Assembly: GCA_964016885.1 (NCBI GenBank)
Contig: OZ024740.1
Location: forward strand, 241,490,001-241,554,000
Length of the DNA: 64,000 nt
Source of the DNA: Eledone cirrhosa
Lineage: Eukaryota
Reading direction: 5' to 3'
Positions 3,152 to 62,066 of this stretch are shown here, in pieces (position 1 is the stretch's first letter; every line of letters begins with the position of its first letter). The notes beneath the pieces are model-generated. The model saw only the letters and a program-made list of their open reading frames with translations. It had not been told where the DNA came from and made no database searches. Position numbers and translations under genes: made by a program.

Positions 3152-4895
3152 TTAAGTCGTTTGGAAGCCTTGACAATGCAGATGGGTAAATCTCCGGGTA
3201 ACAAGATCCGGTGGTGGAGAGAGAGATGTAAGTGGGTGTACGTTGAGATGCGTGGCGTGTAGAAAACTGTAGCGTGTAGAAGAATGTAGGAAAGAGCGTA
3301 AATGATAAAAATAAAAATAAAAACAAAAACACGAAATAGAGTTACCTTGGGAGAGATTTAATTGCCCTATATATTTCGGATTCACATTCATCAACTAGGA
3401 TTTTTTGCAGGGGGGGGGGGGGGGGAGGTTGTCTGTCGGAAAGGTGCGAAACGTCTCCTCCGCTGTTCGTTGTTTTGAATATCTGAGGTATTCAGCAGAG
3501 CGCGCGTGCGCGTGAAATGTAGTCGGTCAAGCAGAGGTCAGCGGCCGAAATACTTCTTTCAATTGTGGGAGTGGGGTGGCGCTAGCTGTCAGTCCATAGT
3601 ATTCTCTGCCTGTTTGGTGAACGTTACCGTGTGTGTGTGTGTGTGTGCGTGTGTTGTTGTCTCGCTTGAGTGTGTGTGTGTGTTGTTGCCTTGTTCCTCT
3701 GTATTGGCAGTGTAGTATGTTCGTATGGTGGAATGCTACTGTGTGTGTGTGCGTGTGTTGCTGTCTCGCTTGTGTGTGTGTGTGCGTGTGTTGCTGCATC
3801 GTTTGTTAACTTAAACCAACCACCTCATGTCGCTTCTCTCGGATTGGTTGTTTAATTGTGGTCCTAGGCGTTTGATCCTTGATACGTACTGTGCCGACGT
3901 TTCTTTCTATCGCTAGAATTGTGACAATGGGCCTTCCGTCTTTGTTTCCGCATTTGGCTATGTGTTTCCGGAAAGACGAGGCCCTGGTTTTAGTGTGCTC
4001 CTTGATCCGGATGTGCAGCGGCCTGATTGTGCTCCCTATATAGTATTGGTTGCACTTGTTACATTCTATCTTATACACGACGTATGTGCGTAGGCAACAG
4101 TTCGCATGGCGCATCGGGCAGTGTCTGGGGGAGCACGCGTCAGTTGATTTCCCGGGTTTCCTAGAGAGATATCTTCGCAGGGAGGGGCCCCAGAGGGCCA
4201 GGTGGATGTCGAGGCCCTCCCTCGTATAGCCTTGCGGATAGCGTTGGTGGTATTCTCGCCCAGGTGTGGCATTTAAAGGAAGCACTTGCCTTGGGTGCCT
4301 CTCTGTCTCTTGTGTCTGGTGTCTCCTACTCTTTCTGCGAGCGAGGTAGGGTACCCGTTCGTCTCCAGCACCTCGAGGAATCGCTTGGTATGAGTGACAC
4401 CACTCGCGGGATCGCGGCATCTGTTTTTGATTCGCGCGATCTCGTTCGTGATGTATCCTCTTTTGGCACTGTTAGGGAGGGCGAACTTGTAGTGGACGAA
4501 CAGGTCCCTGCAGTCTGCCTTTCGGTAGAAGTTGCAGTGGATCCCTCCCTGCTCCGTGATGTTGATTTGGAAGTCGAGGAGGGCAAGTGACCCGTCGTCG
4601 TTAGGGTGTTCAACACTGAAATCAATATTCTCGTCCGTGTTGTTGAACGTCCCATAAATTCCGTTCGCCATCTCCTGGGAAGATGTGAGGATGAGGATGT
4701 CGTCTACGTACCTTGAGAAAAAGGCAACGGCGTTGGGGTGACAGGCATTGAGTGCCTTGCGCTCGAGGCTGTCCATGTAAGAGATCGCTAGCACACCCGA
4801 CAGGCTTGAGCCCATGGGCAGTCCCGAGGTTTGCTGGTATGTTTGGTCAAGGAATCCGAAGTAGGTGTTGTCGACGACGATGGATAGGAGTTGGT
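3150..4895 (-). mobile_element. 5'-truncated Penelope-like element (RT C-half plus GIY-YIG), frameshifted, between (TA)n tracts
   Basis: GLPMGSSLSG, RYVDD, LALLD, FYRK, NGYP (4273-4890) and VYKIECNKCNQYYIGSTIRPLHIRIKEH (3806-4270). Confidence 0.88.
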
Positions 4896-4924
4896 GTATA
4901 TATATATACAATATATATATACAT

Positions 4925-4987
<63 letters not shown>

Positions 4988-5250
4988 AGGCATGTATTGA
5001 GTTAGAAACTCAAAATAGTCTCATTACAGTAAATTAGCTCTAAGAAAAAAGCTTTTCCGAGCCGTATAGTATAACTGAACCAAAAAGAAAAACGAACATA
5101 GACATTTACATATATGTATTCACATCGTAATGGACCAGAATCGCTAAGGGGAAAAAAAATACTAACTACAGAAAATATGGTTTGTCAGACTCAAATTTAA
5201 GAATAAATGAAGAAAAATAAATACAAACCATAATTGTGATAACAACCGAA

Positions 5251-21594: not shown

Positions 21595-23630
21595 GTTTTC
21601 CGGTTTTAGTCGCCAACGACTCGACCATGCACAGGTTGTACTGGATTACAAGTTACCAGTAGCACTGAAGAGCGATGGGTCAAAGGGCGGAGGAACTCAG
21701 GAGAGTCAACGGCCATCCAATAAAATATTTATTTTGTGGAGCGAGAGACTCCTATTTTTCATTAAGACATCTCTCTAGGAGAAAGTCGCTCTTATATAAA
21801 ACCTGCGACTTCGTAATCATCCAATGATGTAGACCAGTTCTATTTTTTTGGTAAATGCATTCCTCACTTAAAAAAACCTTTCCTCACTTAAAACAGTTTC
21901 AAGCACAGACATCGCTTAATATGTGAAATATTTTGTGATGCATGGTATTGCTGGCCATAGGCAAGTCCTTAGCAGGACTAAAAATCCATACCGTGATGCT
22001 CATGCTTAAGTGATGGTATTACTCGAAATCGAGTTGCAGTCATCATCATGTATGTATGTATGTATGTATGTATGTATGTATGTATGTATGTATGTATGTC
22101 AGGTCACCAGTGGTGCTACTGGTAACATGTATCCCAGTACAACCTGTCTCATGGTCGGGTCGTTGGCGACTAAACTGGCAACCCCATCAAGGTTTCTTGG
22201 TGAGGAGGGTGACTTTGGACATCCTGCAGGACTAAAAACAAAACCTGTCAAAGGGCAAAGGAGCTCTTAAGAGTCAATGGCCATCCAAAATCACCGGGAG
22301 AGATGACCCCTTAGCCTTTGTCAAGGCAGAATTCTAGGAGAAGGACAACTCTGATATAACACCTGCAACCCTAATGGTATCCAATGATGTTGACTTGTTC
22401 TTCTTTTTGGTAAATATCATCTTGGTTAAGAGAGTGGGACTGGTTTTGTGCAGTGCCTTTGCTCACCATAAAAGCTTCACGGCACAGGCATTGCTTTAAA
22501 TCTGGAGATCTCTCTGCACTTGTCATATGGTACCATGGGCCTAGCACTATGTGTCAATAATTGTCACAAGTGTAGTGTTTGTACCAGAGTTTTCAAGTCG
22601 CTGGCTGGACTAAAAAGTCACACTTGTTTAGCGCATCAGTAGGGGTTCTCCTACATGGATATAAAGTAGTGGCCGTACTCGAAAACGAGTTGGCAGCCAC
22701 CATGTATGTATGTATGTATGTAAGGGCAAAGGAGCTCTTAAGAGTCAATGGCCATCCAAAATCACCGGGAGAGATGACCCCTTAGCCTTTGTCAAGGCAG
22801 AATTCTAGGAGAAGGAAAACTCTGATATAACACCTGCAACCCTGATGGTATCCAATGATGTTGACTTGTTCTTCTTTTTGATAAATATCATCTTGGTTAA
22901 GAGAGTGGGACTGGCTTTGTGCAGTGCCTTTGCTCACTATAAAAGCTTCACGGCACAGGCATTGCTTTATATCTGGAGATCTCTCTGCACTTGTCGTCAC
23001 ATGGTACTATGGGCCCAGCACTATGTGTCAATAATTGTCACAAGTGTAGTGTTTGTGCCAGAGTTTTCATGTCGCAGGCTGGACTAAAAAGTCACACTCG
23101 TTCAGCGAATCAATAGGGTTTCTCCTACATGGATATAAAGTAGTGGCCATACTCGAAAACGAGTTGGCAGCCACCATGTATGTATGTATGAATCAATGGC
23201 CATCCAAAATCACCCGGAGAGATGACCCCTTAGCCTTTGTCAAGGCAGAATTCTAGGAGAAGGAAAACTCTGATATAACACCTGCAACCCTGATGGTATC
23301 CAATGATGTTGACTTGTTCTTCTTTCTGGTAAATATCATCTTGGTTAAGAGAGTGGGACTTCCTTTGTGCAGTGCCTTTGCTCACTATAAAAGCTTCACG
23401 GCACAGGCATTGCTTTATATCTGGAGATCTCTCTGCACTTGTCGTCACATGGTACCATGGGCCCAGCACTATGTGTCAATAATTGTCACAGGTGTAGTGT
23501 TTGTACCATAGTTTTCAAGTCGCTGGCTGGACAAAAAAGTCACTCTCGTTCAGCGCATCGGTAGGGGTTATCCTACATGGATATAAAGTAATGGCCGTAC
23601 TCGAAAACGAGTTGGCAGCCACCATACATG
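21595..23630 (+). mobile_element. Cluster of RTE-associated short elements, including three tandem ~470-bp units
   Basis: Units at about 22250-22715, 22723-23190 and 23191-23625 each end cagccaccat(gtat)n; shared 5' leader at 22102, with an inverted copy at 21601-21677. Confidence 0.8.
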
Positions 23631-23675
23631 CATGTATGCATGCGTGCATACGTGCATGTGTGCATATTTGCAATG

Positions 23676-25245
23676 TCTTCTGGTTTTATTATTTCACAAA
23701 TTTTTGCCAATAGAGAGAGATCCCGTTTCTAACATAGTAACAAAACTGTCCCATTGGAATTTACACAACATCAACTAGGTACATATGTATGCATGTTTGC
23801 ATGCATGCATGTGTGTGCAGGTATGGATGTTATTGTATGTGTGGATGTTTTGAGTTGTATGTGTGCATGTGTATATGCAGTTATTAGATGCAGAATTTTA
23901 AAAATGTTTTACGTATTTTTACTGTTCCATGGATTGTACTTGTAATTTCCTAACTAGTTGTGTTCGTTCAGTTTCTGTGAACCCAGCTTCTCAAGATTTG
24001 TATTGAGGCAGTTAGTAACATATCCCAGTGCCCCAATAATCACAGGTATAAATCTGAAGGTGTAATAAGGTTGGAGTATCTGCAGATTTCTCATTAGTTC
24101 TGCATAGATATTCTCCTTTTCACTAATCTTTAATATTATATTGGCATCTGCTGGGCAGCTAGCTTCCACTACTGTGCATGCCTTCTTTTCCCTGTCCTAT
24201 ATCATTATATCTGGTCTGTTATGCCTGCATTATATTGGGGTTTTTACTGGAACATTCCACCAGTACGCTTTCATATTATGTATATGTATCTCATCCACAT
24301 TGCTGTAGCTTTTAATGTGTTTATTTTTGGGGCTATCCTTTTTACTGATTGCATTGTATAGTGTTTTTGACATTACATCATGCCTCATAGGTAGATGGTA
24401 CCGGGATGGCATCTTTGGACAGCTGCTTATGAGATGGGTGACATCTTCGATGTTAATTCGGCAGAGCCTGCACTTGTTACATCTAAGTGTTTTGCATACA
24501 TCCCTATTTCTTTTGTGAATCAGGTATTTTGTGTTGATTTCCTGTTCTCGGATTGCAAAAGCGTATCCTTCAAAGTGGGAGCCAATATAGCGGTTGTTTG
24601 TCCAAGATAGACTACTTTGCTTACCTATATTACTCTCATTTTGAAGTTACCTGGCAACATATAAACGCATGATTTCTTGCTGATAAGCATGCAGTTTTTC
24701 GTCCATGGATTCACTGTGGTAGTGCTGGGCAATTTCCCTGGATGTGAGATTTTGATTATCATGCAGGAAGTATCTTTCAAGGAGTTCCTTCCCAATTTAT
24801 CTGTCTCATGCAGATAGACTTGCTCAATAGACACGCTCCTACGCTTCGAGGTTTGAATATGTTGTCGGAGGAATATGATGCGACACTCAAATGCTGTCTG
24901 GACTGATGTTAGGCCTCTGCCTCCTTGCTTACGCTTCAAGTAGAGGCGGTCTATGTCAACTGTTGATGTGGAAGTTTCCGGTGTTGTTTAGTATTTTTCG
25001 AGTCCTAACATCAATTGCTCGGATTTCGTCGTTTATTGTCCAATCCAGTATGCCAAACATTGGTGCTAGGACAGGCATAGGAAACACATTGTGAGCCACT
25101 GTTTTATTGTGCGCAGAGAGTTTGGATGACCATATCTTTCTTTATCGGGTGTAATATTCCCTGGTTACGCGTTCCTTATTACAGATACCATTATAGGATA
25201 TATTCTCATCTATCCCCTGGTATCTGTAGCAGTTTTCGTCAGTGT
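23676..25245 (-). mobile_element. Dong/R4-like copy, same family as 36777-39307, truncated and degenerate
   Basis: Reverse complement matches the 3' part of the 36777 copy (CYRYQGIDENISYNG, KRKQGGRGL, MRHD, ASCPADAN, 3' UTR). Confidence 0.9.
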
Positions 25246-26056
25246 ATCTCGAGGTATATGTATTTCTAGCGGTAACAGTGCTAATCAACCAATGAGTGGT
25301 TGTCACGTTCTTTTGTTTGATCGTTCCGCATGATTCACGTGTAGAATCTGACATGTTTGATGCCTCCTGATCCCATCGAACAGAACTGAAAAGGCTGTAT
25401 ACTAGAGAACAGCAAACGAGATGCGTTGAAAGAACCATTCCAGCTCGCAGGTGTCAACACTGTTTTAATAACAGTGAGTAAAGAAGGCGTCTGGAGGAGC
25501 AGGACGCCATAAGTTCCCATCGCTATAGGTTTAACGAAGCTTACGTCTATCGCTGAATTCGCCAAGTTGCTGCCGAAAAAGTATCGTTGAACATCGCATC
25601 CCAGACGAAGAGCACATCCAGTGGAACCAGAAAACTGTAATACCATTAGGCCTTTGCCGTCCTCTCGGTCTAACCCCAACGGTTCAAACTACAATGGGAG
25701 GTTAGCATGGTCCAAGTGAAACTTAACGATATCATTATGAGAGACATGCAATGGGAGGCATCCGGCACTGAGGTGGTATGACTGTGGATGAAGACTGAAA
25801 GCGACTATACTGGTTCTCCAACAGTGTTTATGTTGCCGGAAAATCCTGAGACAGAACATCGGGAAAAACATACCTTATGCTTTCGTATCCTAGTGAATTA
25901 ATCACCCAGTCATGGTGCAGCTGTTTATTTTCCTGATTTATTAACACAGAAAGGGAAACCACTCCAGCTTATTCACGGAGCAATAGCACATGCGCAGTAA
26001 AGTACATTAGATCAACATATGTATAAATGATAAAAAATACGTTGTATATTACTCAC

Positions 26057-36385: not shown

Positions 36386-36776
36386 TGTGCGTGTGTGTGT
36401 GTTTTATATATATATATATATATCATATAGAAATGACTTCTACGGGACAAGAACTGTTTCATTTGTCTGAAATAACAAAAGGATGATTTCAAAACGAATG
36501 AAACGTTTGTAGTCTTGAAATGAAACATTTCTAAATCATTTATCTTCTCTACTTAATGTATTGAGTACCTTATTTAACTGATATCTTTCCTTTTCTCTTC
36601 GAAAATCATTCATAATTATATATATATATATTTCAAGGGTAACAAAACATACCAGATAAGGTATGTTTTCCTTGGCTATGTCAAAATTTATATACACACA
36701 CATATATATATACATACATACATACATACATACATACATACATACATACATACATACATACATACATACATACATC

Positions 36777-39307
36777 CAAGATAAGAAAACACCAGGAAGA
36801 GACATGATTGTCGGCTACTGGTACAAAAAACTAATATTCTATGGGAGGTATCTTACTGACCTCTACCAACAAGTTCTTAAGGGAGATACACTTATACCAG
36901 AATGGTTGACATTAGCACAAACGTTACTGGTCCCCAAGAACAAAGACACCCACTTGACAAAAAACTACCGACCCACTGCATGCCGGAACCTGATGTATAA
37001 GATGTATACAGCCTGCCTCAACCTATTCCTCCAAGATCACTGTGAAAATAATAACATCATCACAGATGAACAAGCAGCTGGAAAGAAAGGGGTTTGGGGA
37101 TGTGCTGAACAACTCCTAATCAACAAAACTGCGATGTCGGAGGTGCAACAACTTAGGAGGAATATGACTACAGTCTGGCTGGACTACAAGAAAGCTTTCG
37201 ATTCTGTTCCCCACTCTTGGATGATAGAGGCCCTCCAACTTGCTAAAGTCCCAGACATTATTGTCAGAGCCATAGAGAGGCTGTCTTCTTCTTGGGCTAC
37301 TATCCTAAGGTTAAAGACAGAGAGGGAGGACTCTATTTTCACTGATAAAATAAAATATTGCAGGGGTATATTTCAGGGGAACAGTCTCTCTGTGATATTG
37401 TTCATCTTGTCATTAAACCCCTTGTCCTTTCTGCTCAAGAAATGTGAGGGATACATCATTGGCTCACAGGAGGACAGAAATACGAACCTAACCCATAACT
37501 TCTTTGTGGACGATCTGAAACTCTATGACAAGAACATGGATGGGATGAAGAAAAATCTTGACCTGGTTACAACGTTCTCAAAGGATATAGGAATAGAGTT
37601 TGGCCAAGTTAAATGCTCATACATGACTGTAAAGCGGGGAAAAACAACAACCCAATCTAGCAACATTGTCATCAATGGTCTAACTGTTTCACCGATATCT
37701 GATGAGGACTGCTACAGATACCTGGGGATAGATGAGAACATATCCTATAATGGTATCTCCAATAAAGAACGCGTAACCAGGGAATACCACACCCGATTAA
37801 GAAAGATCTGGTCATCGGAACACTCTGCGCAAAACAAAACAGTGGCTCACAATGTGTTTGCTGTGCCTGTCCTAACACAAACGTTTGGAATACTCAATTG
37901 GACAATAGACGAAATCCGAGCCGTTGATGTTGGAACTCGAAAAGTACTGAACAACACCGGAAACTTCCACATCAACAGTGACATAGACCGCCTTTACTTG
38001 AAACGTAAGCAGGGAGGCAGAGGCCTAACAGCAGCCCAGACAACATTTGAATGTCGCATCATATCTCTCCGACAACATCTACGAACCACGAAGCGTAGGA
38101 GCCCGCTTCTCGAGCAAGTCTATCTGCATGAAACAGATAAGATCATGAGAGTTGGGAAGGAACTCCTCGAGGGATATTCCCTGTGTGATAATCAAAATCT
38201 CACACTCAGGGATGTCGCTCAGCAGTATCGCAGTGAATCCATGGATGAAAAACTGCATGCCTATCAGCAAAAAATTATGCATGGATATGTTGCCAGGAAG
38301 CTCCAGAGTGAGAGTAATATAGATAAGGAAAGTAGTCTATCTTGGACCAACAACCGCTATATTGGCTCCCACTTTGAAGGATACGCTTTTGCAATCCAAG
38401 AACAGGAGATTAGCACGAAATACCTGATTCACAAAAGAGATAGGGATGCAGGCAAAACACCTAGATGTGATAACAAGTGCAGACTCTGCAGAACTAACAT
38501 CGAGGATATCACCCATGTCATCAGCAGCTGTCCAAAGATGTCATCGCGGTACTATCTACTTATGAGGCATGATGTAGTGGTCAAAACACTGTACAATGCA
38601 GTTCGTAAAAAAGATAGCCCCGATAACAAACACATTAAAAGCTACAACAATGTGGAATACATCCATGTACATAATATGAAAGAGTACTGGTGGAATGTTC
38701 CAGTAAAAACCCCAATAAAATGCAGGCATAACAGACCAGATATTATGATATTGGACAGGGAGAAGAAAACATGCACAGTAGTGGAAGTTAGCTGTCCAGC
38801 AGATGCCAATATAATATCAAAGATTAGCGAAAAGGAGAATATTTATGCAGAACTGATAAGAAATCTGCAGATACTCCACCCTGATTACACCTTCAGATTT
38901 ATGCCTGTGATTATTGGGACACTGGGATATGTTAGTAACTGCCTCAATACAAATCTTGAGAAGCTAGGCTTCACAGGAACAGAAAGAACACAACTACTTA
39001 GGAAATGACAAGTACAATCGATTAATGGAACAGTAAAAATATGTAAAACATTCCAAAAAATTTGCATCTAATAACTGCATATACACATGTACAGATACAA
39101 AGCATATACACATGCACACATACAACTCAAAACATACACATCCACACATACGATAACATCCATATCTACACATGCATGCATGCAGACATACATACATATC
39201 TACCTAGTTGATGTTGTGTAAATTCCAATGAGAGAGTCTTGTGTCTATATTAGAAACCGACTCTCTCTCTATTGGTAAAACTTTGTGAAATTATAAAACC
39301 AGAAGAA
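36777..39307 (+). mobile_element. Dong/R4-like RLE non-LTR retrotransposon, 5'-truncated, inserted in (TACA)n
   Basis: RT motifs NYRP, WLDYKKAFDSVPH, GIFQGNSLS, FVDDLK, YRYLG; CRLC..H....C knuckle, RHD, RPD...E restriction-like endonuclease; premature TGA at about 39006 where other copies have TTA; 3' UTR ends ttataaaaccagaagaa before (cata)n. Confidence 0.92.
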
Positions 39308-39399: not shown

Positions 39400-40790
39400 A
39401 AAGTAAGTTATGTGGTAATCTTTGTTGTTCTTTTTTCTGTCCAATATTTCGGGACCTAAAAGTCCCTTCATCAGGATTTAAGGAACCTTCAGTGGATAAC
39501 ATTCCAATTTTCTCTCTTTGGGATTAGATTTTAATTTTGATTTAAATTTTTTCGAAGTCATTTTCAAGCGTTTTTTTATGATTATTTCGCTTTTCACGAG
39601 AATGACGTCCATTGACAATATAGTATTGCGCGAAATTAATTTTGGCTTTTGTATGAGATGTTTAGTTTGAGTGTCTCTGGGTGTGTCTTTTTATGTTAAG
39701 TACTGTGTGCTGAGTTGTAATCTATTATTTATTTGCGGGTTGAGTCTACGTATGAGGAAGGCTTCCTTAATTCTTAAATTACCCATATTCTATCACTAGC
39801 TTTAATAGTAACGGTAAAATGTTGGTTGATGTTGCTACATTTGTCGATGTGTTTTTTTAATGATGATGCATGTGTGTTGAGGTGTTCTTTAATGCGAGTG
39901 TGGAGTGCTCGAGTTGTGCTACCAATGTAGAAGTCCTTACATTTGTTGCATTCAATCCGGTATACCACATGTGTCCGCTGGCACATACCTGTATCGCGGA
40001 TAGCGCAGTTAGTCAGCGAGCATTGATTGTTGTTGTCTCTGGACAACCGCTTTTTAGACAGGTATCCACACAGTGAAGGGCCGGAGTGTGTTAATTGTAT
40101 GTCCAGTCCTTCTTTGCGGATAGCTGTGGTTATGCTTTCGCTGAAATGTGGTAATTTCATGAAGCAGGTGCTGGAGGACGCCTTCTGTCTGCGGCGCCTT
40201 CGATTCTTAAGTCGATTCACTGTGGATGTTGGGTATCCGTTCGTCTTCAGTGCATCTATGAAGTGTGCAGTGTGAGTGAGCTGGTCTTGCTGCATTTATT
40301 CCGGATACGAATAAATTCATTTCTTATGTATCCAGTTTTAGCACCAAGGGGGAGAGCTCATCTATAATGCACAAACAAGTCTCTTCTGGCAGCTCCGCTA
40401 TAGAAGTTGGTGTATTGAGTACCTTCTGATACTCTAAGTTGGAAGTCTAGCAGAGACAAGGAACCATTTTTATCGGGGTGTTCTGTGGTAAATCGTATAT
40501 TGTTATCTGTGTTTGAAAACACTGTAGATATTATGTCGGCCTCTTCACGGGATGATGTGAGGATTAGTATATCATCTATATATCGGGTGAAGAAAATACA
40601 GGCTAGGCAGGTGTTGAGCACTCAACGTTCCAGTTGGTTGATATAGGTAATGGCTAGAAGTCCTGAAAGACTGGGCTCCATGGGAAGGCCTGTTGTTTGT
40701 TTGTATGTGTAGTGTTCAAAAGTGAAATATGTATTTTCTACGATGACGGATAGAAGCTGATATATGTCTTGCGGAGTGAGGTCGAAGCTA
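39400..40790 (-). mobile_element. Degenerate Penelope-like element related to the 3150-4895 copy
   Basis: GLPMEPSLSG, RYIDD, LSLLD, NGYP, VYRIECNKCKDFYIGSTTRALHTRIKEH spread over three frames; HHR-like motif downstream at 39440-39478. Confidence 0.85.
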
Positions 40791-44576: not shown

Positions 44577-45046
44577 CAAATATACATATACACATATATA
44601 TACACATACACACACACACAATATATATACACATATATACATATACACACACACACATACATACACACATACACACATACATACATACATACATATACAA
44701 ATATATATACATATATACATATACATATATATATATATATATACATACACGCACATATATATACATACATATACACACACATATATACACACACACACAT
44801 ATACACATATATACACACATACACACACACACATACACATGCATATATATAAATATATATATATATCTATATATATATCTATATATATACATATGACCCT
44901 CCCAAAGTATAACAATATCGGTTACAACACACGATTTCAGATTTCAGATAAAGAATCTTGCTAAACAAATTCAGAAATATATTTATATATTTTAAAATAT
45001 TTATATATATATATATTTATATATATTTATATATATATTTATATAG

Positions 45047-45107
<61 letters not shown>

Positions 45108-45110
<3 letters not shown>

Positions 45111-45950
45111 GAATCTAGAAGCAGTTTAGGTATGATACTTGTTATTACTAATTATATCTAAATGTTTCTTGTCTCTCTCTTCATAATGTATTTTTAACTC
45201 TGATACTGGTTCAGTCTAGTTCAACTGGATTGGTCTGTCCCAGTCATTCATTTAGCAACATCGGTGAAGTTGGCACCCTTAACTCACAGTTGGGTGCGGA
45301 TGCATTCATGTATATATGTGTGTGTCCGCATGTAACTGTGTGTTTCTAAATATATTGTTAATAACTCCCTCTGGTCGAGCAATCTTTGAAGTGTGAGGAC
45401 AGCTGGAAAGCTTCCATTACTCATACTTCTCGCCTCCTTCACCACCTCTTCTACGGCCTCGATATAAAAACCCCCTCCGCCTCCGTGGTATTTTCTTCGG
45501 GGTTATAAGAGGCTTAGCTCTGTTTCTCGACCGTTATATCGCGTGACTATCTCCCCCTCCGCCTTTTGGGATTCTTTCTCACGTCGTGTAGACGCGTTCT
45601 TGAGACTAGTAAAATGAGGTATCCTCTTGATAAGTCGGCAGACCTCGCAAGGACTCTATATCTTTATCATATATTGGTTTTGTTTATGCCACGAAACTAC
45701 ATAGTCGAGGAATCTAAAGCAGTTTAGGTATGATACATTTTATTACTAATTATATCTAAATGTTTCTTCTCTCTTCATAATGTATTTTTAACTCTGATAC
45801 TGGTTCAGTCTAGTTCAACTGGATTGGTCTGTCCCAGTCATTCATTGAGCAACATCGGTGAAGTTGGCACCCTTAACTCACAGTTGGGTGCGGATGCATT
45901 CATGTATATATGTGTGTGTCCGCATGTATCTGTGTGTTTCTAAATATATT
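45108..45950 (+). repeat. 1.4 tandem copies of a ~599-bp HHR unit
   Basis: 45109-45356 is repeated at 45708-45950. Confidence 0.85.
45622..45711 (+). ncRNA. Hammerhead ribozyme with U3-A8 core, family J
   Basis: UCCUC-UUGAUAA-GUcGGCA...UGCCAC-GAA-ACUAcaUAGU-C-GAGGA. Confidence 0.72.
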
Positions 45951-46572
45951 ATAAATATATATATATATAAATATAAATATATATATAAATATATATAAAT
46001 ATATATATATATAAATATACATATATATAAATATATATATATATATCGTTTCTGAATTTGTTTAGCAAGATTCTTTATCTGAAATCGTGTGTTCAAACCG
46101 ATATTGTTGTTCTTTGGGAGGGTCATGTTGCCAATAAATTGAAGTGAACCAACTGGTGCGTGTGTTTCTTATTGGCAACATGACCCTCCCAAAGTATAAC
46201 AATATATATATATATATATATATATAAATATAAATATATATATAAATATTTATATATATATATATAAATGTAACTATGTATACGTACATACATATATGTA
46301 TACAGACGTACAGTAGCATGTATATATATATATATATACATACAGGAACATATATATGCACGTATCTCTGGCAGAAAGGTATACGGTGCTGACGATAGCT
46401 AACAAGCTTAAAACTAGTACATCGTCATGTGTCAGTGTTGATCAAAAAGGTGACGTGTTTTCCTAACACTGTACGGCGTAAATCAGGCTGTTCGTTTGTT
46501 TACAAACGAACAAAGCGATCATTATAATAAATGTTCGGTAAACTGATACGTGAATATATATATGTGTGCCTG

Positions 46573-47212: not shown

Positions 47213-47528
47213 TAATTGCCTTATGTTGTTTATTACATAATTGTTTCTACTTTAGGCACAAGGCCAGCAATTACCCAGTGCATTACTGGCACTTTATTTT
47301 ATCGACCCCGTAAGGATGAAAGGCAAAGTCAACCTCGGCGGGATTTGAACTCAGATCGTGCTCTGTTGCCTACTCTTTTTTCCTGGACTTTTCCGATGGA
47401 ATTACTTGATTTATACAGCTCCAACCGGGATTGATCGCAGCATATTCTATATTACATATACGATTGGCACTTTCCAGCCCGATTAGTTGAGCACTCTACA
47501 GTTTTCAGGAATTTAACCAACATACACC

Positions 47529-49655
47529 ATGGACCTTTATGATTTGGATTATTCTATCAAAAATATACCCACTCCTTCCAACACGACTTACACCAAAATC
47601 CTCATTGATAAAATCGAACAAGTCGTTAAAAGAATGAGATGGAAGGCAATGGTTTACGATGGACTATTCAGTGCTGATACTAAAGATTATTTTGACATTA
47701 AATCCCGTAAATATCCACCTAGAATTAAAGACATGGCCAACTTCGAATTAGACCTCGTTAATCTAATTAGTGATATCAAATTTCGTAAGTACAATAATAA
47801 CTTTCAAACTAAACTTTCTAACGATATCTCTAATTTTAGAAATTCTACAAACACTTTCGTTCTTTCTGATAAAACTAAAGACCTCTTTGAAGTTAATAGT
47901 AATTTGTATAACCAACTTTTAACTAATAGTATTACCAATAAATATCAATTAACTAATAATAATAGCTACAATACTATCAATAAAGAAGCTAAAGAACTAG
48001 CTAGTTCTTTACAAATAGATAACCGGATTGAAAGCTTAGCTAAGCGTAAAGAATATATTACCCTTAAAGACCATAAATTGGACTTTACTAATCGACCTAG
48101 TTGTAGACTGATTAACCCGGCTAAATCCGAGGTTGGCCTTGCTAGTAAGAAAATCTTAAGAAAAATAATTCTCCAAATTAGAACTAACACTGACCTTTCA
48201 CAGTGGCTAAATACTTCCTCTGTTATTTCTTGGTTCAATAATATACAAGGTAAAAATAAGTGTAGATTTACCCAATTTGATATTGTCGATTTTTACCCTT
48301 CTATTACTGTTTCCTTATTAACTAATGCCTTAGATTTTGCAAGACCCTTCATTAATATCTCTAAATTAGAAGAGGACATTATCTTTCATGCTAGAAAAAC
48401 TTTACTTTTTACTAATGATAATATTTGGGTTAAAAAGTCAAACCCTGAAAACTCTTTCGATGTTGCAATGGGTTCCTATGACAGTGCGGATGTGTGCGAC
48501 TTAGTAGGATTATTCCTTCTCCACACACTCAAAGAGAAATTTCCGTCCCATAATATCGGTTTATACCGTGATGACGGATTAGCAGTTTCTCATACCACCA
48601 ACGGCCATAATCTTGATAAATTCCGTAAAGATTTAATTAGTACTTTTGCTAATCTTAACCTTAAAATTACTATAGATACGAACCTTACTAATGCTAACTT
48701 TCTTGATATTAATCTTGATCTACTTACTGCCTCTTTTAAACCCTATCATAAACCTAATGAAAATCTTAGGTATATACACAAAGAGTCTTGCCATCCCCCT
48801 ATAGTTTATAATAATCTTATTCCTAACATTAGCCTTAGGATATCTACCTTATCTTCGTCTATAGACATTTTTAATAAAGCGGGCCCTTATTATAATAAAG
48901 CCCTTAAGAACAGCGGTTTTACAGAAAATATTTCTTATTTACCTACTCCCCCCCCCTAAAACTAACCATAATAACAGGAAAAGGAAGATTATTTTGTTCA
49001 CACCCCCCTTCTCTCTAAATGTCAAAACTAATGTAGAATTCCTTGAACTATTAGACAAACATTTTCCTCCTATTCATAGATATTATAAGATTTTTAATAG
49101 GAATGTAGTTAAGATCAGCTACTCTTGTTGCCCATCCATGAAGTCCAAAATCACCAGTTCAAACCGTACGAGGATAAATCCAGGATGCAGTTGCAGGAAG
49201 CCGGATGAATGCCCATTGCAGGGTAAATGTAACACGAAATCTGTCGTTTATGAGGCTAAGATAACGCCAGTTATCAACAACCAGCCAGCCAGGAGTGAGC
49301 GATATGTCGGTATGACCCAGGACAGGTTAAAAACCAGATTTTACTCACATGTCGCTTCTTTTAAGCACTCTGATAAACGAACATCAACGGCCCTCGCAAG
49401 TAAGGTATGGGATCTCAAGGATAGTAATATCCCGTACTCTATTGATTGGTCTATTTTAGACCATTCGAGAGAGTACCAAAGGGGCACAAAGAATTGTTCT
49501 TGTGTACCACAGAAAAGTATAGGATTTTGCTAAACTTGAGAGCCACTTCCGCTTGCCTTAACTCAAAGACTGAGATCTTCAGATGCTGTCCTCATCTGAA
49601 ATCGCATCTGATCTGTAACTGGATTGACACTCCTATGATAAATCAACCGCCTTGA
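47529..49655 (+). pseudogene. PLE reverse transcriptase / GIY-YIG endonuclease ORF, broken by frameshifts near 48955 (C run) and about 49500
   Basis: Three consecutive ORF pieces (47529-48959, 48994-49533, 49446-49655) give continuous RT-thumb-GIY-YIG motifs. Confidence 0.85.
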
Positions 49656-52074: not shown

Positions 52075-55000
52075 TAAATATAATAAATAACAAAGAACGC
52101 CTATAGCATATGCATATCTTTACTTGCTAACATTGTTTCATCCGCACTATAAGTGGGACTCATCAGAGCATAAAGGTTAATTACATACCATACAAGCAAT
52201 AACAAATCCAAGACATTGAAGAATGAAAAATAATAATAGACGATAAAGGATATTAAGGAAGTAAAAGTAAAAATAAAGATAAGAATAAAAATAAAAATAA
52301 AAATAAAAATAAAAATAAAAATAAAAATAAAAATAAAAATAAAAATAAAAATAAAAATAAAAATAAAAATAAAAATAAAAATAAGATAATAAAATAAACA
52401 ATGAAAAATAAGCAATGAAAAATAAGGGGTGCTATCAGTCACAGTTGGGCGGGGTGCTGTCAACATATAGTTACATACAAGCATACACATGGATAAGAGA
52501 ACAGACAAGAGTAGATAAGATAGATGGGATTAGGTAAGAGTAGGTAAAAAATAGGTGAAAAACAGACTTATAATATATATAAGAAAATATAAAGAAATAC
52601 ATAACAAACTTACATATAAAATATAAAATATACAGATAATAGTGATACAGGGTAAGGAATGAGATAAAATAATATAAAATTAAAATTAAAATTATATAAA
52701 ATAGAACATAATATAATATAATCGTAAAATAAGATAAAATAAGGTAAACTAAAATCAAATAACATAGACTAAATTAAAATAATATAATATAAGATATAAT
52801 TAAGTCTAATTAATAGCAATAGAGGTGTCGTGAACGGGAGGTTTCTGGATGCCGGTGGAATGAACCAGCAGGGCACCATTAGTCTAAGTAATAGCAATGG
52901 TAGGCCTCGCAGCTCCCCGCATAGACTAGGTGAGCATAGGAACCGTAGAAATAATAATGCTAATAATACTGATGGAAATAGAAAGAATAAAAAGAATAGA
53001 AGATTGAATACATACTTCAACTCCCCTTTTAATTCTGAAGTGGCTATAAATATTCCTAGGGCCTTCTTCTCTGTGTTAGAAAGGAACTTCCCTCCTGGTA
53101 ATAGGTACCACTCTATCCTCAATAAGAATATTGTTAAACTTTCGTATTCTACAACCCAAAATCTGGCCTCTCATCTGGCCATTACTAATAATAAGAAAAT
53201 AAAGGAAGGCCTGGACAACCTAAGCCTAGGGGAAAACACGGTAGTGGACAGTGGGCAGAAACACAAGTGGTGATCATTCTGAGAATAGCATCACCAGAGG
53301 TTGTAACTGTAGAAGGGCTTCAGGCTTCCCCCTGAATGGTTTCTGCCTTGTTAGAAACATAGTTTATGCGTGTGATGTAGTAACTACGGCGTCCACTAAG
53401 ACCTATATAGGATCAACCTCCACCCCCTTTAAGACCAGGTTTAACTCTCACCAATGCACTTTTAGACATAATAAACTGAGGAACTCCACCTCCTTGGCAG
53501 CGTACGTCCATAATTTAAAAAATGCACGAACACATTACACACTTACTTGGCGGCAGGTTGCTAAATCCCATCCATATACTCCTCATAATAGAGTATGTAA
53601 CCTATGCCTTGCCGAATCCCACTCTATTATATTTGCTAAATGCCCTCTACTAAATAGAAAGTCTGAAATATTTTCCTCTTGCCCCCACCGGATATTAAGC
53701 TCTTTCTTCTACTTTAAACCTGTTAGCTAGCACTTCCTTATTCCTCCAGTTGGGCTGTCTTGTGTAACTGTCTCTGACTGTGTGTAACTGTCTCCTATTG
53801 TTGGTCGTCTATGTATACGAGTCGGTGAATGTATACGTATGCCTGTGGGAGGATATTGATCTGGATATTGGGATGTGCAGGTGAGCGGGTGTGTATGTTA
53901 ATAAGCACCCCTGTTTGGCACAGTGGATGTAACCCATCCACGCTCGCCTACCCACCATTGGTGCATTGGTGGGTCTATCCTGACGTATATCTTGTTGATC
54001 TGTACCTCTGTATGCGCATGAGTTGTGATGTAATGTATTTATGTAAAGCGTGTACTGCGATTTAGGCTGCACTAATAGAAATTTAGCCTGTAACTGTGGG
54101 CGGACCCGTGCCATCCCGCCGTAAGCAGTGGATACGTGGCGCATGTACGTGTTGCCCTCATATTCTGTGGTTTAAGATCTACAGGCTGACCTCTGGGAGC
54201 TCTTGCCCGGGGTTGTAGTCTTTCTAGCACGATCGGCCTTCCATATATTAACGGTCGTTGTTATGATCCCGAAAGTAACGTTTTGGCCCCGATAGCCCTC
54301 CGTAGTTACTAACGGTCTGTGTACACTTGAATCGGGCAATGGCACGTGCGGACATGAATATCTCCGTGGGATTTCAACTTTATTTTACTACATCTCATCG
54401 TATGTATTTATTTTGAATGTATTACCTGTGGTGGTGGGTCTGGTCTAATGTGGTATTTCGGTGTTTAATATCAGCTTTGACCCGGGTGTCCTACGCTGTG
54501 TGTGTGTGCGTGTGTGTCCGTGTATACATTTATATGTGTATGGGTGTAGGTGGTTGTATATGTCTGTATATAAAAAAAAAAATATATATATATATGTATA
54601 CCGTCTCTGCATATGCATGTGGTGTGTATATGTGCATATACGTGCTGAACATATTGATGTGCACAATCTTGTGATGTCCCAATGCGGTGACTTAATGGCT
54701 CTTGAAGCTATTTTTTATATATCTTCTGTCCTTTTATATATCTTTTGTATGCGCTACAACTGTGTCTGCTTGCTTTGGCTAACCCGCCTGCACCTCGCTT
54801 GCTAATGCACGTGAATTCTTCTACCTCCTTCGATGCACCTCTCTCTGACCATTGGACTCCTGCCCGGGTGTGAACCGGTTTGTGATTATCCCACCGCTCA
54901 ACTGTGTGAATGCACACCCGTGACTTTCGAGTGAACTTTTGAGACTGCCCAACCTGGATCGCCTCCATTGCCTTGCAATGGTCAAGTGATACTGGGGACT

Positions 55001-58271: not shown

Positions 58272-58373
58272 AATATATAAATATATATATAAATATATAA
58301 ATATATAAATATATATATAAATATATAAATATATATATAAATATATATATATATATAAATATATAAATATATA

Positions 58374-59637
58374 TTTGGATTTAATGCTCTGAAATAGCGA
58401 TATATATGTGAAGACAAACAGAATATTCGAAAATATTCTGTATGTTTATAATAAACATTTTGAAGACCCAATCGCTATAGAATAGAATACGTCACGTATT
58501 ACAATTTGAGATTCTCGATAAAAGCAAGGGAAGTAATCTACGCGTTTCATTCTTATTAGAAATCATCAGGATTACATATCCAATGCTTTTATCGAGAACG
58601 ACACAGCTAGAGACTTATAGAATACTTAGCTGTGTACAGGAACTGGTTTGAAAGAGCGGTAGCCGGTCCGGCAGAAATTAGAATTTGGATTTAATGCTCT
58701 GAAATAGCGATATATATGTGAAGATAAACATAGAATATTCGAAAATATTCTGTATGTTTATAATAAACATTTTGAAGACCCAATCGCTATAGAATAGAAT
58801 ACGTCACGTATTACAATTTGAGATTCTCGATAAAAGCAAGGGAAGTAATCTACGCGTTTCATTCTTATTAGAAATCATCAGGATTACATATCCAATGCTT
58901 TTATCGAGAACGACACAGCTAGAGACTTATAGAATACTTAGCTGTGTACAGGAACTGGTTTGAAAGAGCGGTAGCCGGTCCGGCAGAAATTAGAATTTTG
59001 ATTTAATGCTCTGAAATAGCGATATATATGTGAAGACAAACATAGAATATTCGAAAATATTCTGTATGTTTATAATAAACATTTTGAAGACCCAATCGCT
59101 ATAGAATAGAATACATCACGTATTACAATTTGAGATTCTCGATAAAAGCAAGGGAAGTAATCTACGCGTTTCATTCTTAATTCTAAACGTGTAGATTACT
59201 TCCCTTGCTTTTATCGAGAATCTCAAATTGTAATACGTGACGTATTCTATTCTATAGCGATTGGGTCTTCAAAATGTTTATTATAAACATACAGAATATT
59301 TTCGAATATTCTATGTTTGTTTTCACATATATATCGCTATTTCAGAGCATTAAATCCAAATTCTAATTTCTGCCGGACCGGCTATCGCTCTTTCAAACCA
59401 GTTCCTGTACACAGCTAAGTATTCTATAAGTCTCTAGCTGTGTCGTTCTCGATAAAAGCATTGGATATGTAATCCTGATGATTTCTAATAAGAATGAAAC
59501 GCGTAGATTACTTCCCTTGCTTTTATCGAGAATCTCAAATTGTAATACGTGACGTATTCTATTCTATAGCGATTGGGTCTTCAAAATGTTTATTATAAAC
59601 ATACAGAATATTTTCGAATATTCTATGTTTGTCTTTC
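58374..59637. repeat. Tandem plus inverted ~311-bp HHR repeat (retrozyme-like)
   Basis: Units start at 58374, 58684 and 58996; orientation flips at about 59180. Confidence 0.9.
59469..59511 (+). ncRNA. Hammerhead ribozyme, family G (minus-strand copies at 58533-58575 and 58845-58887)
   Basis: GUAAUC-CUGAUGA-uUUCUaauaAGAAu-GAAACGCGUA-GAUUAC. Confidence 0.85.
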
Positions 59638-61112: not shown

Positions 61113-61165
<53 letters not shown>

Positions 61166-61169
<4 letters not shown>

Positions 61170-62066
61170 GGTAAAAATGAAACGAAATTTCTTTTCCCAC
61201 TCTTAGTACGGCTGTTACTTAAATATAAGTATGTACACGTACATACATATATGTATGCAGACGTACAGTAGTACGTATATATATATATATATACATACAT
61301 GCACACATATATATATGTACGTATGGATTCACCGAACATTTATTATAATGCTCGGTGTGTTTGTAAACAAACATCCCGTATTAAGCCGTAGTGTCCACCA
61401 ACCATCGTTGCTCGTTTGTTCAACACTGACAAAGGAACGCTGTACTAGTTTCAAGCTTATTAGCTATCATCAGCAACGTATACCTTCCTGCCAGATTGTT
61501 GAACGTATATACTTACCTTATGCATATTAACGGCTGAGTAGCTCAATTTGCATATCGAGTGGGTTAATCGGCCGGTGCACCGAAAACGATAAATGGTAAA
61601 AATGAAACGAAATTTCATTTCCCACTCTTAGTACGGCTGTTACTTAAATATAAGTATGTACACGTACATACATATATGTATGCAGACGTACAGTAGTATG
61701 TATATATATATATATACATACATGCACACATATATATATGTACGTATCGATTCACCGAACATTTATTATAATGCTCGGTGTGTTTGTAAACAAACATCCC
61801 GTATTAAGCCGTAGTGTCCAGCAACCATCGTTGCTCGTTTGTTCAACACTGACAAAGGAACGCTGTACTAGTTTCAAGCGTATTAGCTATCATCAGCAAC
61901 GTATACCTTCCTGCCAGATTGTTGAACGTATATACTTACCTTATGCATATTAACGACTGAGTAGCTCAATTTGCATATCGAGTGGGTTAATCGGCCGGGT
62001 GCACCGTACTAAGAGTGGGAAATGAAATTTCGTTTCATTTTTACCATTTATCGTTTTCGGTGCACC
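61166..62066. repeat. Tandem ~424-bp HHR repeat with short inverted tail (family E; also 5522-6170 and 46260-46780)
   Basis: Units start at 61166 and 61591; 62005-62066 is an inverted copy of the unit junction. Confidence 0.88.
61437..61479 (-). ncRNA. Hammerhead ribozyme, family E (tandem copy at 61860-61902)
   Basis: ACGUUG-CUGAUGA-uAGCU..AGCUu-GAAACUAGUA-CAGCGU; palindromic ACUAGU stem III. Confidence 0.78.

Follow-up and report, generated by a model that had tools for sequence, protein, structure and literature searches.

A non-coding hammerhead repeat of Eledone cirrhosa with two fixed 3' ends and scattered 5' ends, a likely passenger of Penelope-like retrotransposons

Does a hammerhead ribozyme set the 5' end of the RNA from which a retrotransposed repeat is copied? 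The question is raised by a 64,000-nt stretch of the Eledone cirrhosa genome (assembly GCA_964016885.1, contig OZ024740.1, positions 241,490,001 to 241,554,000; hereafter the window), which holds an insertion in a (TA)n tract that starts close to the predicted cut site of its own hammerhead. An earlier note on this DNA had proposed that self-cleavage made the template RNA's 5' end. Our analysis leads to another reading, which we hold with high confidence: the element is a 5'-truncated copy of a non-coding repeat of about 595 nt with a predicted hammerhead, probably copied into (TA)n by the machinery of a Penelope-like element (PLE), and it likely starts at the cut by chance.

Table 1. Features of the insertion, with positions counted from the first base of the window
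Feature	Position	Strand	Remarks
Left-flank target tract, (TA)n	44985..45107	strand-less	
Unit 1	45108..45706	+	599 nt (family ~595); 5'-truncated near the cut site; non-coding; 42% GC
Type I hammerhead motif	45622..45711	+	the insertion's sole complete copy; cut predicted after 45706
Stem I	45622-26/45707-11	+	5 bp
Core UUGAUAA, U3-A8 variant (DNA TTGATAA)	45627..45633	+	U3 = 45627, A8 = 45632
Stem II	45634-40/45687-92	+	C45636 bulged; 46-nt loop region
GAAA	45693-96	+	
Stem III, short	45696..45705 (45696-99/45702-05)	+	perfect palindrome in most copies (dimer-type); disrupted here by A45701
Unit 2, partial	45707..45951	+	runs from the cut to site B (3' end)
3' end site A	45774..45785	+	~+80 from the cut; ends 68/119 sampled arms; internal in the window copy (also near 45191)
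3' end site B	45937..45951	+	~+244 to +250; ends 45/119 arms; the window copy's own end
Right-flank target tract, (TA)n	45952..46046	strand-less	

The hammerhead with a UUGAUAA core that the earlier note had described was confirmed, as a motif of type I. All named pairs are standard in our descriptor scan and pairing check, the motif has a Watson-Crick 3-8 pair, GAAA, UH and three stems, and a cut is predicted after C45706 (Table 1). Searched against Rfam, it gave no hammerhead hit, either above the gathering score or with E values up to 10, so the call is based on our own scan and pairing check. The motif is beyond chance, its core and stems being kept across 133 complete ribozyme copies from 80 loci, where the U3-A8 core is retained in 128 and stem III is self-complementary in 126. 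The description of U3-A8 as a known covariation also held: such hammerheads are reported to occur naturally and to be active in vitro (PMC3088659, PMC4209133), and about 1300 Schistosoma PLE motifs have this core (PMC4209133); the C3-G8 pair of the hammerhead is treated in PMC3884650. A45701, a rare base found in 2/133 copies including the window copy, breaks the self-complementarity of stem III (duplex of -3.8 kcal/mol, where a family copy has -12.9). The active fold of the window copy is predicted to lie 3.4 kcal/mol above its lowest-energy fold, and a strong hairpin (45879..45935, + strand, -30 kcal/mol) stands directly before site B.

The insertion consists of a (TA)n tract, one 599-nt unit, a partial second unit of 245 nt and a further (TA)n tract. 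AGGAATCTA is found at 45109 and again at 45708, a spacing of 599 that includes a 4-nt insertion private to this copy. The element had been said to begin, one period upstream, with the post-cleavage sequence; its start does lie within 1-2 nt of the predicted cut, but it reads (TA)n-A-AGGAATC, with the post-cut G missing or altered. The element is non-coding, with no overlap with any stop-free frame of 100 aa, and lacks the RT and GIY-YIG ORF of an autonomous PLE; its combination of a non-coding tandem unit with a type I hammerhead is that of a retrozyme. The + strand of the unit folds much better than shuffled sequences (z -5.35, 0/100) and the - strand no better (z -1.53, 5/100). The window copy deviates from the family majority at 11 positions, compared with a median private rate of 0.34%, and is therefore regarded as fairly decayed, with a single ribozyme. 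Insertions are called active in a 2026 preprint (bioRxiv 10.64898/2026.07.22.740005) when they hold at least two consecutive complete hammerheads; the window insertion has one, and other loci of the same family, such as L054 and L078, have such consecutive copies.

Both neighbours of the element (44893-44985 and 46046-46205) are 3' ends of another PLE-like family, so that the element sits in a TA tract amid other PLE ends. This neighbouring family carries a C3-G8 hammerhead in loci L149 and L172 and ends at +160 and +222, and its right-hand copy, at 46046-46205, joins the two types of end head to head. Elsewhere in the window, the descriptor scan detected further hammerhead-like C3-G8 motifs, several of them repeated, at 945, 47160, 51480, 55932 and 62802 on the + strand and at 867, 36248, 46937 and 52166 on the - strand, which likely mark the termini of further PLE families. 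Disrupted coding fragments that resemble PLEs, with RT or GIY-YIG-like motifs, occur at 3806-5001 (-), 39774-40295 (-), 47517-49533 (+) and 53245-53730 (+), and among those tested against the Pfam RT family the sole match was 4276-5001. A 782-codon frame at 36660-39008 (+) with an RT domain (PF00078, E 3e-22) belongs to a non-LTR retrotransposon, and related fragments lie near 24230-25453. Other short tandem repeats by microsatellites were seen at 22274-23638 (448 nt), 58373-59179 (312 nt) and 61164-62006 (423 nt). Immunoglobulin-domain exons occupy 9074-36021 (-), with 4/4 of those tested matching Ig families; we presume that they resemble a contactin-type gene. The element is on the other strand, upstream of these exons, and may be intronic.

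Genome-wide counts, which cover the 3.0-Gb assembly, gave 3936 exact matches to a 30-nt motif just past the cut and none to its reversed control. The copies are dispersed over many contigs as short arrays with a period of 587-595 (mode 595, 13/32 spacings). In a sample of 119 arms from 78 loci, 28 cross the cut site two or more times and the longest exceed four units. Median divergence is 2.18% between loci, 0.54% between units of one arm (85 comparisons) and 0.17% between opposite arms of one insertion (99 comparisons), and the low last value compared with that between loci argues that both arms come from one source sequence.

Variants common to at least four loci are strand-biased, A>G being seen at 15/128 A positions and T>C at 6/211 T positions (p 0.002), private variants show no such bias (p 0.47), and most stem variants still pair, via G-U. 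The shared variants are consistent with RNA structure being under selection, or with A-to-I editing of the template, with the direction of the A/G change uncertain because G>A is equally common. A diverged subfamily piece (L096:942-1236) has the same two end sites, and both of its arms begin at +10 to +12. An intron bounded by a 5' splice-like word at +21 and an acceptor-like word at +107, enclosing site A, was considered and rejected: the corresponding deletion is absent in the 80 loci checked, among which only two internal jumps occur, both away from the supposed intron. A 621-nt contig that loops back by 595, from one of four contig sets of unrecorded kind, was set aside as evidence of a circle, since a tandem repeat would give the same.

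The feature that the copies have in common is the position of their 3' ends. In the sample, 113/119 arms end at site A or B and 6/119 elsewhere; 102 of 114 such ends, counted before hand corrections, run into a TA tract. Contigs of one run (X1), which may be the assembly's own sample, switch to (TA)n at 45785 (site A) and at 45355 (the site B equivalent). We infer that site A is a start of reverse transcription. The choice of end in head-to-head pairs is strict: 36/40 combine A with B, 4/40 contain an odd end and none is A+A or B+B; independent choice of the end site would give about half mixed pairs. This A+B pairing is the 'tail' signature of PLEs, with a tail on just one of two inverted ends, and the family also shows the 5' truncation, partial tandems and head-to-head inversions of PLE-mobilised sequences. 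One-sided tails, inversions and TA targeting have been described for PLEs (PMC8557442, Craig et al. 2021; PMC3846280, Arkhipova et al. 2013).

The repeat is thus likely an ordinary passenger, spread by Penelope-like retrotransposons. In the course of events that we propose, tandem copies would be transcribed and two hammerheads would pair through the palindromic stem III and cut as a dimer; the cut unit would be ligated into a circle, which we rate as a somewhat probable form of the template, the alternative being an uncut linear multimer. The RT and GIY-YIG endonuclease of a PLE, likely Neptune, would serve as the copying machinery. Its protein would cut both strands of (TA)n and prime internally at A on one end and at B on the other, synthesis would cross the intact ribozyme junction and halt at scattered points, and the new strands would be joined either together, giving an inverted insertion, or one of them to the flank, giving a single arm. 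The window copy would be a B-primed single arm that stopped after ~845 nt. The thousands of copies with (TA)n flanks, two fixed 3' ends and scattered 5' ends argue for PLE copying, as does published work with a PLE in which reverse transcription starts at two internal sites and cleavage is dispensable in vitro (PMC11167929). A tail of ~165 nt, compared with 30-40 nt in published PLEs, speaks against it.

The closest rival accepts PLE copying and differs in the template, which would be an uncut multimeric tandem transcript; no circle would form and the ribozyme would matter little for insertion. We regard this as a serious possibility, though one that we do not favour. An anole PLE uses unprocessed RNA in vitro and its ribozyme mutants insert normally (PMC11167929), PLE-type hammerheads cleave poorly in vitro (PMC4209133), and the predicted energy gap below the active fold of the window copy points the same way. 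Against such a template, the core, the stems and the palindrome of stem III are conserved in about 95% of copies and the + strand is strongly structured; related metazoan repeats are expressed as circles (PMC7229834), and the arms longer than four units also weigh against it.

A further possibility concerns the cut site itself, namely that ~1% or less of insertions, perhaps including that in the window, come from partly cleaved linear RNA with run-off of the RT at the cut. Genome-wide, junctions were counted as motif copies with non-ribozyme bases upstream, using four negated positions. There were 25 at the cut site (17 in a three-position version of the search), of which 12 keep the post-cut G. 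A control at unit position 413 gave 22 raw matches, or 20 after removal of two 2-nt deletions, and one at position 219 gave 13, or 7 after removal of six apparent TG-run changes. Once a local duplication and a duplicated locus were discounted, 23 at-site junctions remained; relative to exposure as estimated in the sample, they give rate ratios of 0.9 against the first control and 2.4 against the second (p 0.04), and 1.3 pooled (p 0.39), the bound on a narrow excess at the cut being set by these two distant controls and the sample.

The sample comprised 53 loci taken in order along one contig (C1), among the first 100 listed of the 3936 motif matches, and 25 loci from 30 sequences fetched out of the 40 top DNA hits. 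It excludes overlapping duplicates, the locus of the window and one near-duplicate; two diverged-subfamily pieces and one 30-nt patch were dropped, and two BLAST breaks were corrected by hand. Both sources require sequence at the cut site and are thus biased toward finding starts there. Fifteen 5' ends lie at +1 to +50, against three among the 49 nt that precede the cut (p 0.008), yet the first 50-nt bin is ordinary compared with the whole unit (p 0.45), in a post hoc comparison of bins whose rates vary about tenfold and peak at +351 to +450. At two loci (L129 and L135) both arms begin at the cut site; the L135 junction falls on a 4-nt palindrome, where fold-back joints arise elsewhere in the unit too. 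A small contribution of cleaved templates may thus exist, as the retained post-cut G, these two loci, the higher ratio and the asymmetry of ends around the cut suggest, and the same asymmetry and ratio count against the reading that we prefer. The ratio near one against the other control, the variation among bins and the missing or altered G of the window copy lead us to consider it improbable.

As a rule for the family, a linear template with a hammerhead-made 5' end at which copies begin is hardly tenable. It would explain why the window copy starts so near the predicted cut, but the 25 junctions amount to 0.6% of the ~3936 motif copies, like the controls and near the ordinary per-base 5'-end rate of 0.17%. 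The pile-up of 5' ends that it predicts did not appear in the sample: 2/119 arms begin at +1 to +3 (0.7 expected), compared with 140 read-throughs of the cut site in the same arms, and in the window copy, too, copying ran through an intact site, at 45706. Since the copies have common fixed 3' ends and not common 5' ends, its start at the cut is likely chance. Spread of the repeat as a satellite at the DNA level, through unequal exchange and with an incidental ribozyme, is very improbable: tandem units are present, but dispersed short arrays on many contigs, two fixed 3' ends with ragged 5' ends, 5' inversions and TA targeting give a polar end structure that contradicts it.

GIY-YIG matches are abundant in the genome (150 scored of 10596 candidates), and among 50 GIY-YIG loci one coding PLE family has a U3-A8 hammerhead (L170, L171, L175, L179 and L181). 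Its 38-nt ribozyme has 6009 exact matches by pattern search; a DNA search with its end gave nothing despite this abundance. In the L170 copy, a frame of 938 codons encodes RT, a C-x4-C-x2-C linker and GIY-YIG; this copy lacks part of the endonuclease present in sister copies. RT, a CX2-5CxxC Cys linker, a C-terminal GIY-YIG and TA targets, recognised by motif only, fit a Neptune-like family. Its arms have a two-end pattern like that of the repeat, which supports PLE copying, with 17/46 ending at +82/83 and 25/46 at +148 to +151, and its inverted pairs, scored by eye, have one of each end in 16/19 and are never alike. The first end lies at +80 from the cut in the repeat, +82 in this family and +160 in a C3-G8 family. 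Against the link, the similarity to the repeat at the end sites is insignificant (z -0.8 to 0.35), and no coding copy of the repeat's family was found among the matches listed for 50 PLE loci of 150 scored. The L170 family is therefore a circumstantial candidate for the driver of the retrozyme. In loci L190-L219 of the coding U3-A8 family, a sample biased to intact ribozymes, numerous 5' ends group 56-74 nt upstream of the cut and give short inverted insertions; a transcription start could explain this, as could a fold-back hot spot.

The element is a member of the already described, PLE-linked type of non-LTR retrozymes (PMC7229834, Cervera and de la Pena 2020; Li, Clavereau and Pollet 2026, the preprint cited above), and its U3-A8 core has likewise been published; the open-access literature on hammerhead ribozymes yielded no such element in octopus. 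PLEs are proposed in both papers as driver or origin of these retrozymes. Like them, the element has non-coding tandem units, a type I hammerhead and a GC content <50%, and no LTR, PBS or PPT. Its unit of 595 nt exceeds the 170-400 nt of PMC7229834 and falls inside the 51-972 bp of the preprint; it differs in its U3-A8 core, its long stem II insert and the single complete ribozyme of the window copy, and is known here from DNA. With Neptune-clade PLEs it shares 5' truncation, partial tandems, head-to-head inverted copies with a tail on one inverted end, microsatellite ((TA)n) targets and a hammerhead near the 3' end; it is unlike them in tail length and in having no ORF, and no homology to a coding family was found among the matches listed for 50 PLE loci.

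The nearest mechanistic parallel is PAc, an Anolis Poseidon element in which both strands are extended from two internal RNA sites bounding the tail and insertion in vitro proceeds without need for hammerhead cleavage (PMC11167929, Frangieh et al. 2024). Both have two internal starts downstream of the hammerhead, AT-rich targets and a template intact at the ribozyme site. The PAc sites are adjacent and are described as not homologous to the target, whereas in the element 165 nt separate the two sites and both finish on a TA-like word; PAc, with its C3-G8 core, is autonomous, the element non-coding with U3-A8. Hammerheads of the Schistosoma Cercyon PLEs (PMC4209133) also combine U3-A8, a short stem I, a longer stem II and a palindromic stem III region; they are mostly single and heterogeneous, and the element forms one homogeneous tandem family. 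Neither a strict A+B count nor a ~165-nt tail was found in the open-access main texts searched.

These features allow a tentative and rather doubtful model in which one PLE dimer primes both (TA)n ends from two non-interchangeable sites on one circular RNA, rolling through the junction, with the U3-A8 hammerhead serving as a landmark ~80 nt from site A that is shared with the Neptune driver (+80 vs +82). If it were true, its 165-nt tail and strict A+B rule would make this family a compact substrate for working out how PLEs produce inverted insertions. A pile-up at the cut would have been genomic proof that a PLE-type hammerhead sets the 5' end of its template, an open question in the field; the family points the opposite way, to a template that is nearly always intact at the cut site. 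What it provides is a clean genomic tally of the two-start-site rule, with near-identical arms, in a non-coding passenger, together with a named candidate driver, both of which are testable in the published in vitro PLE assay.
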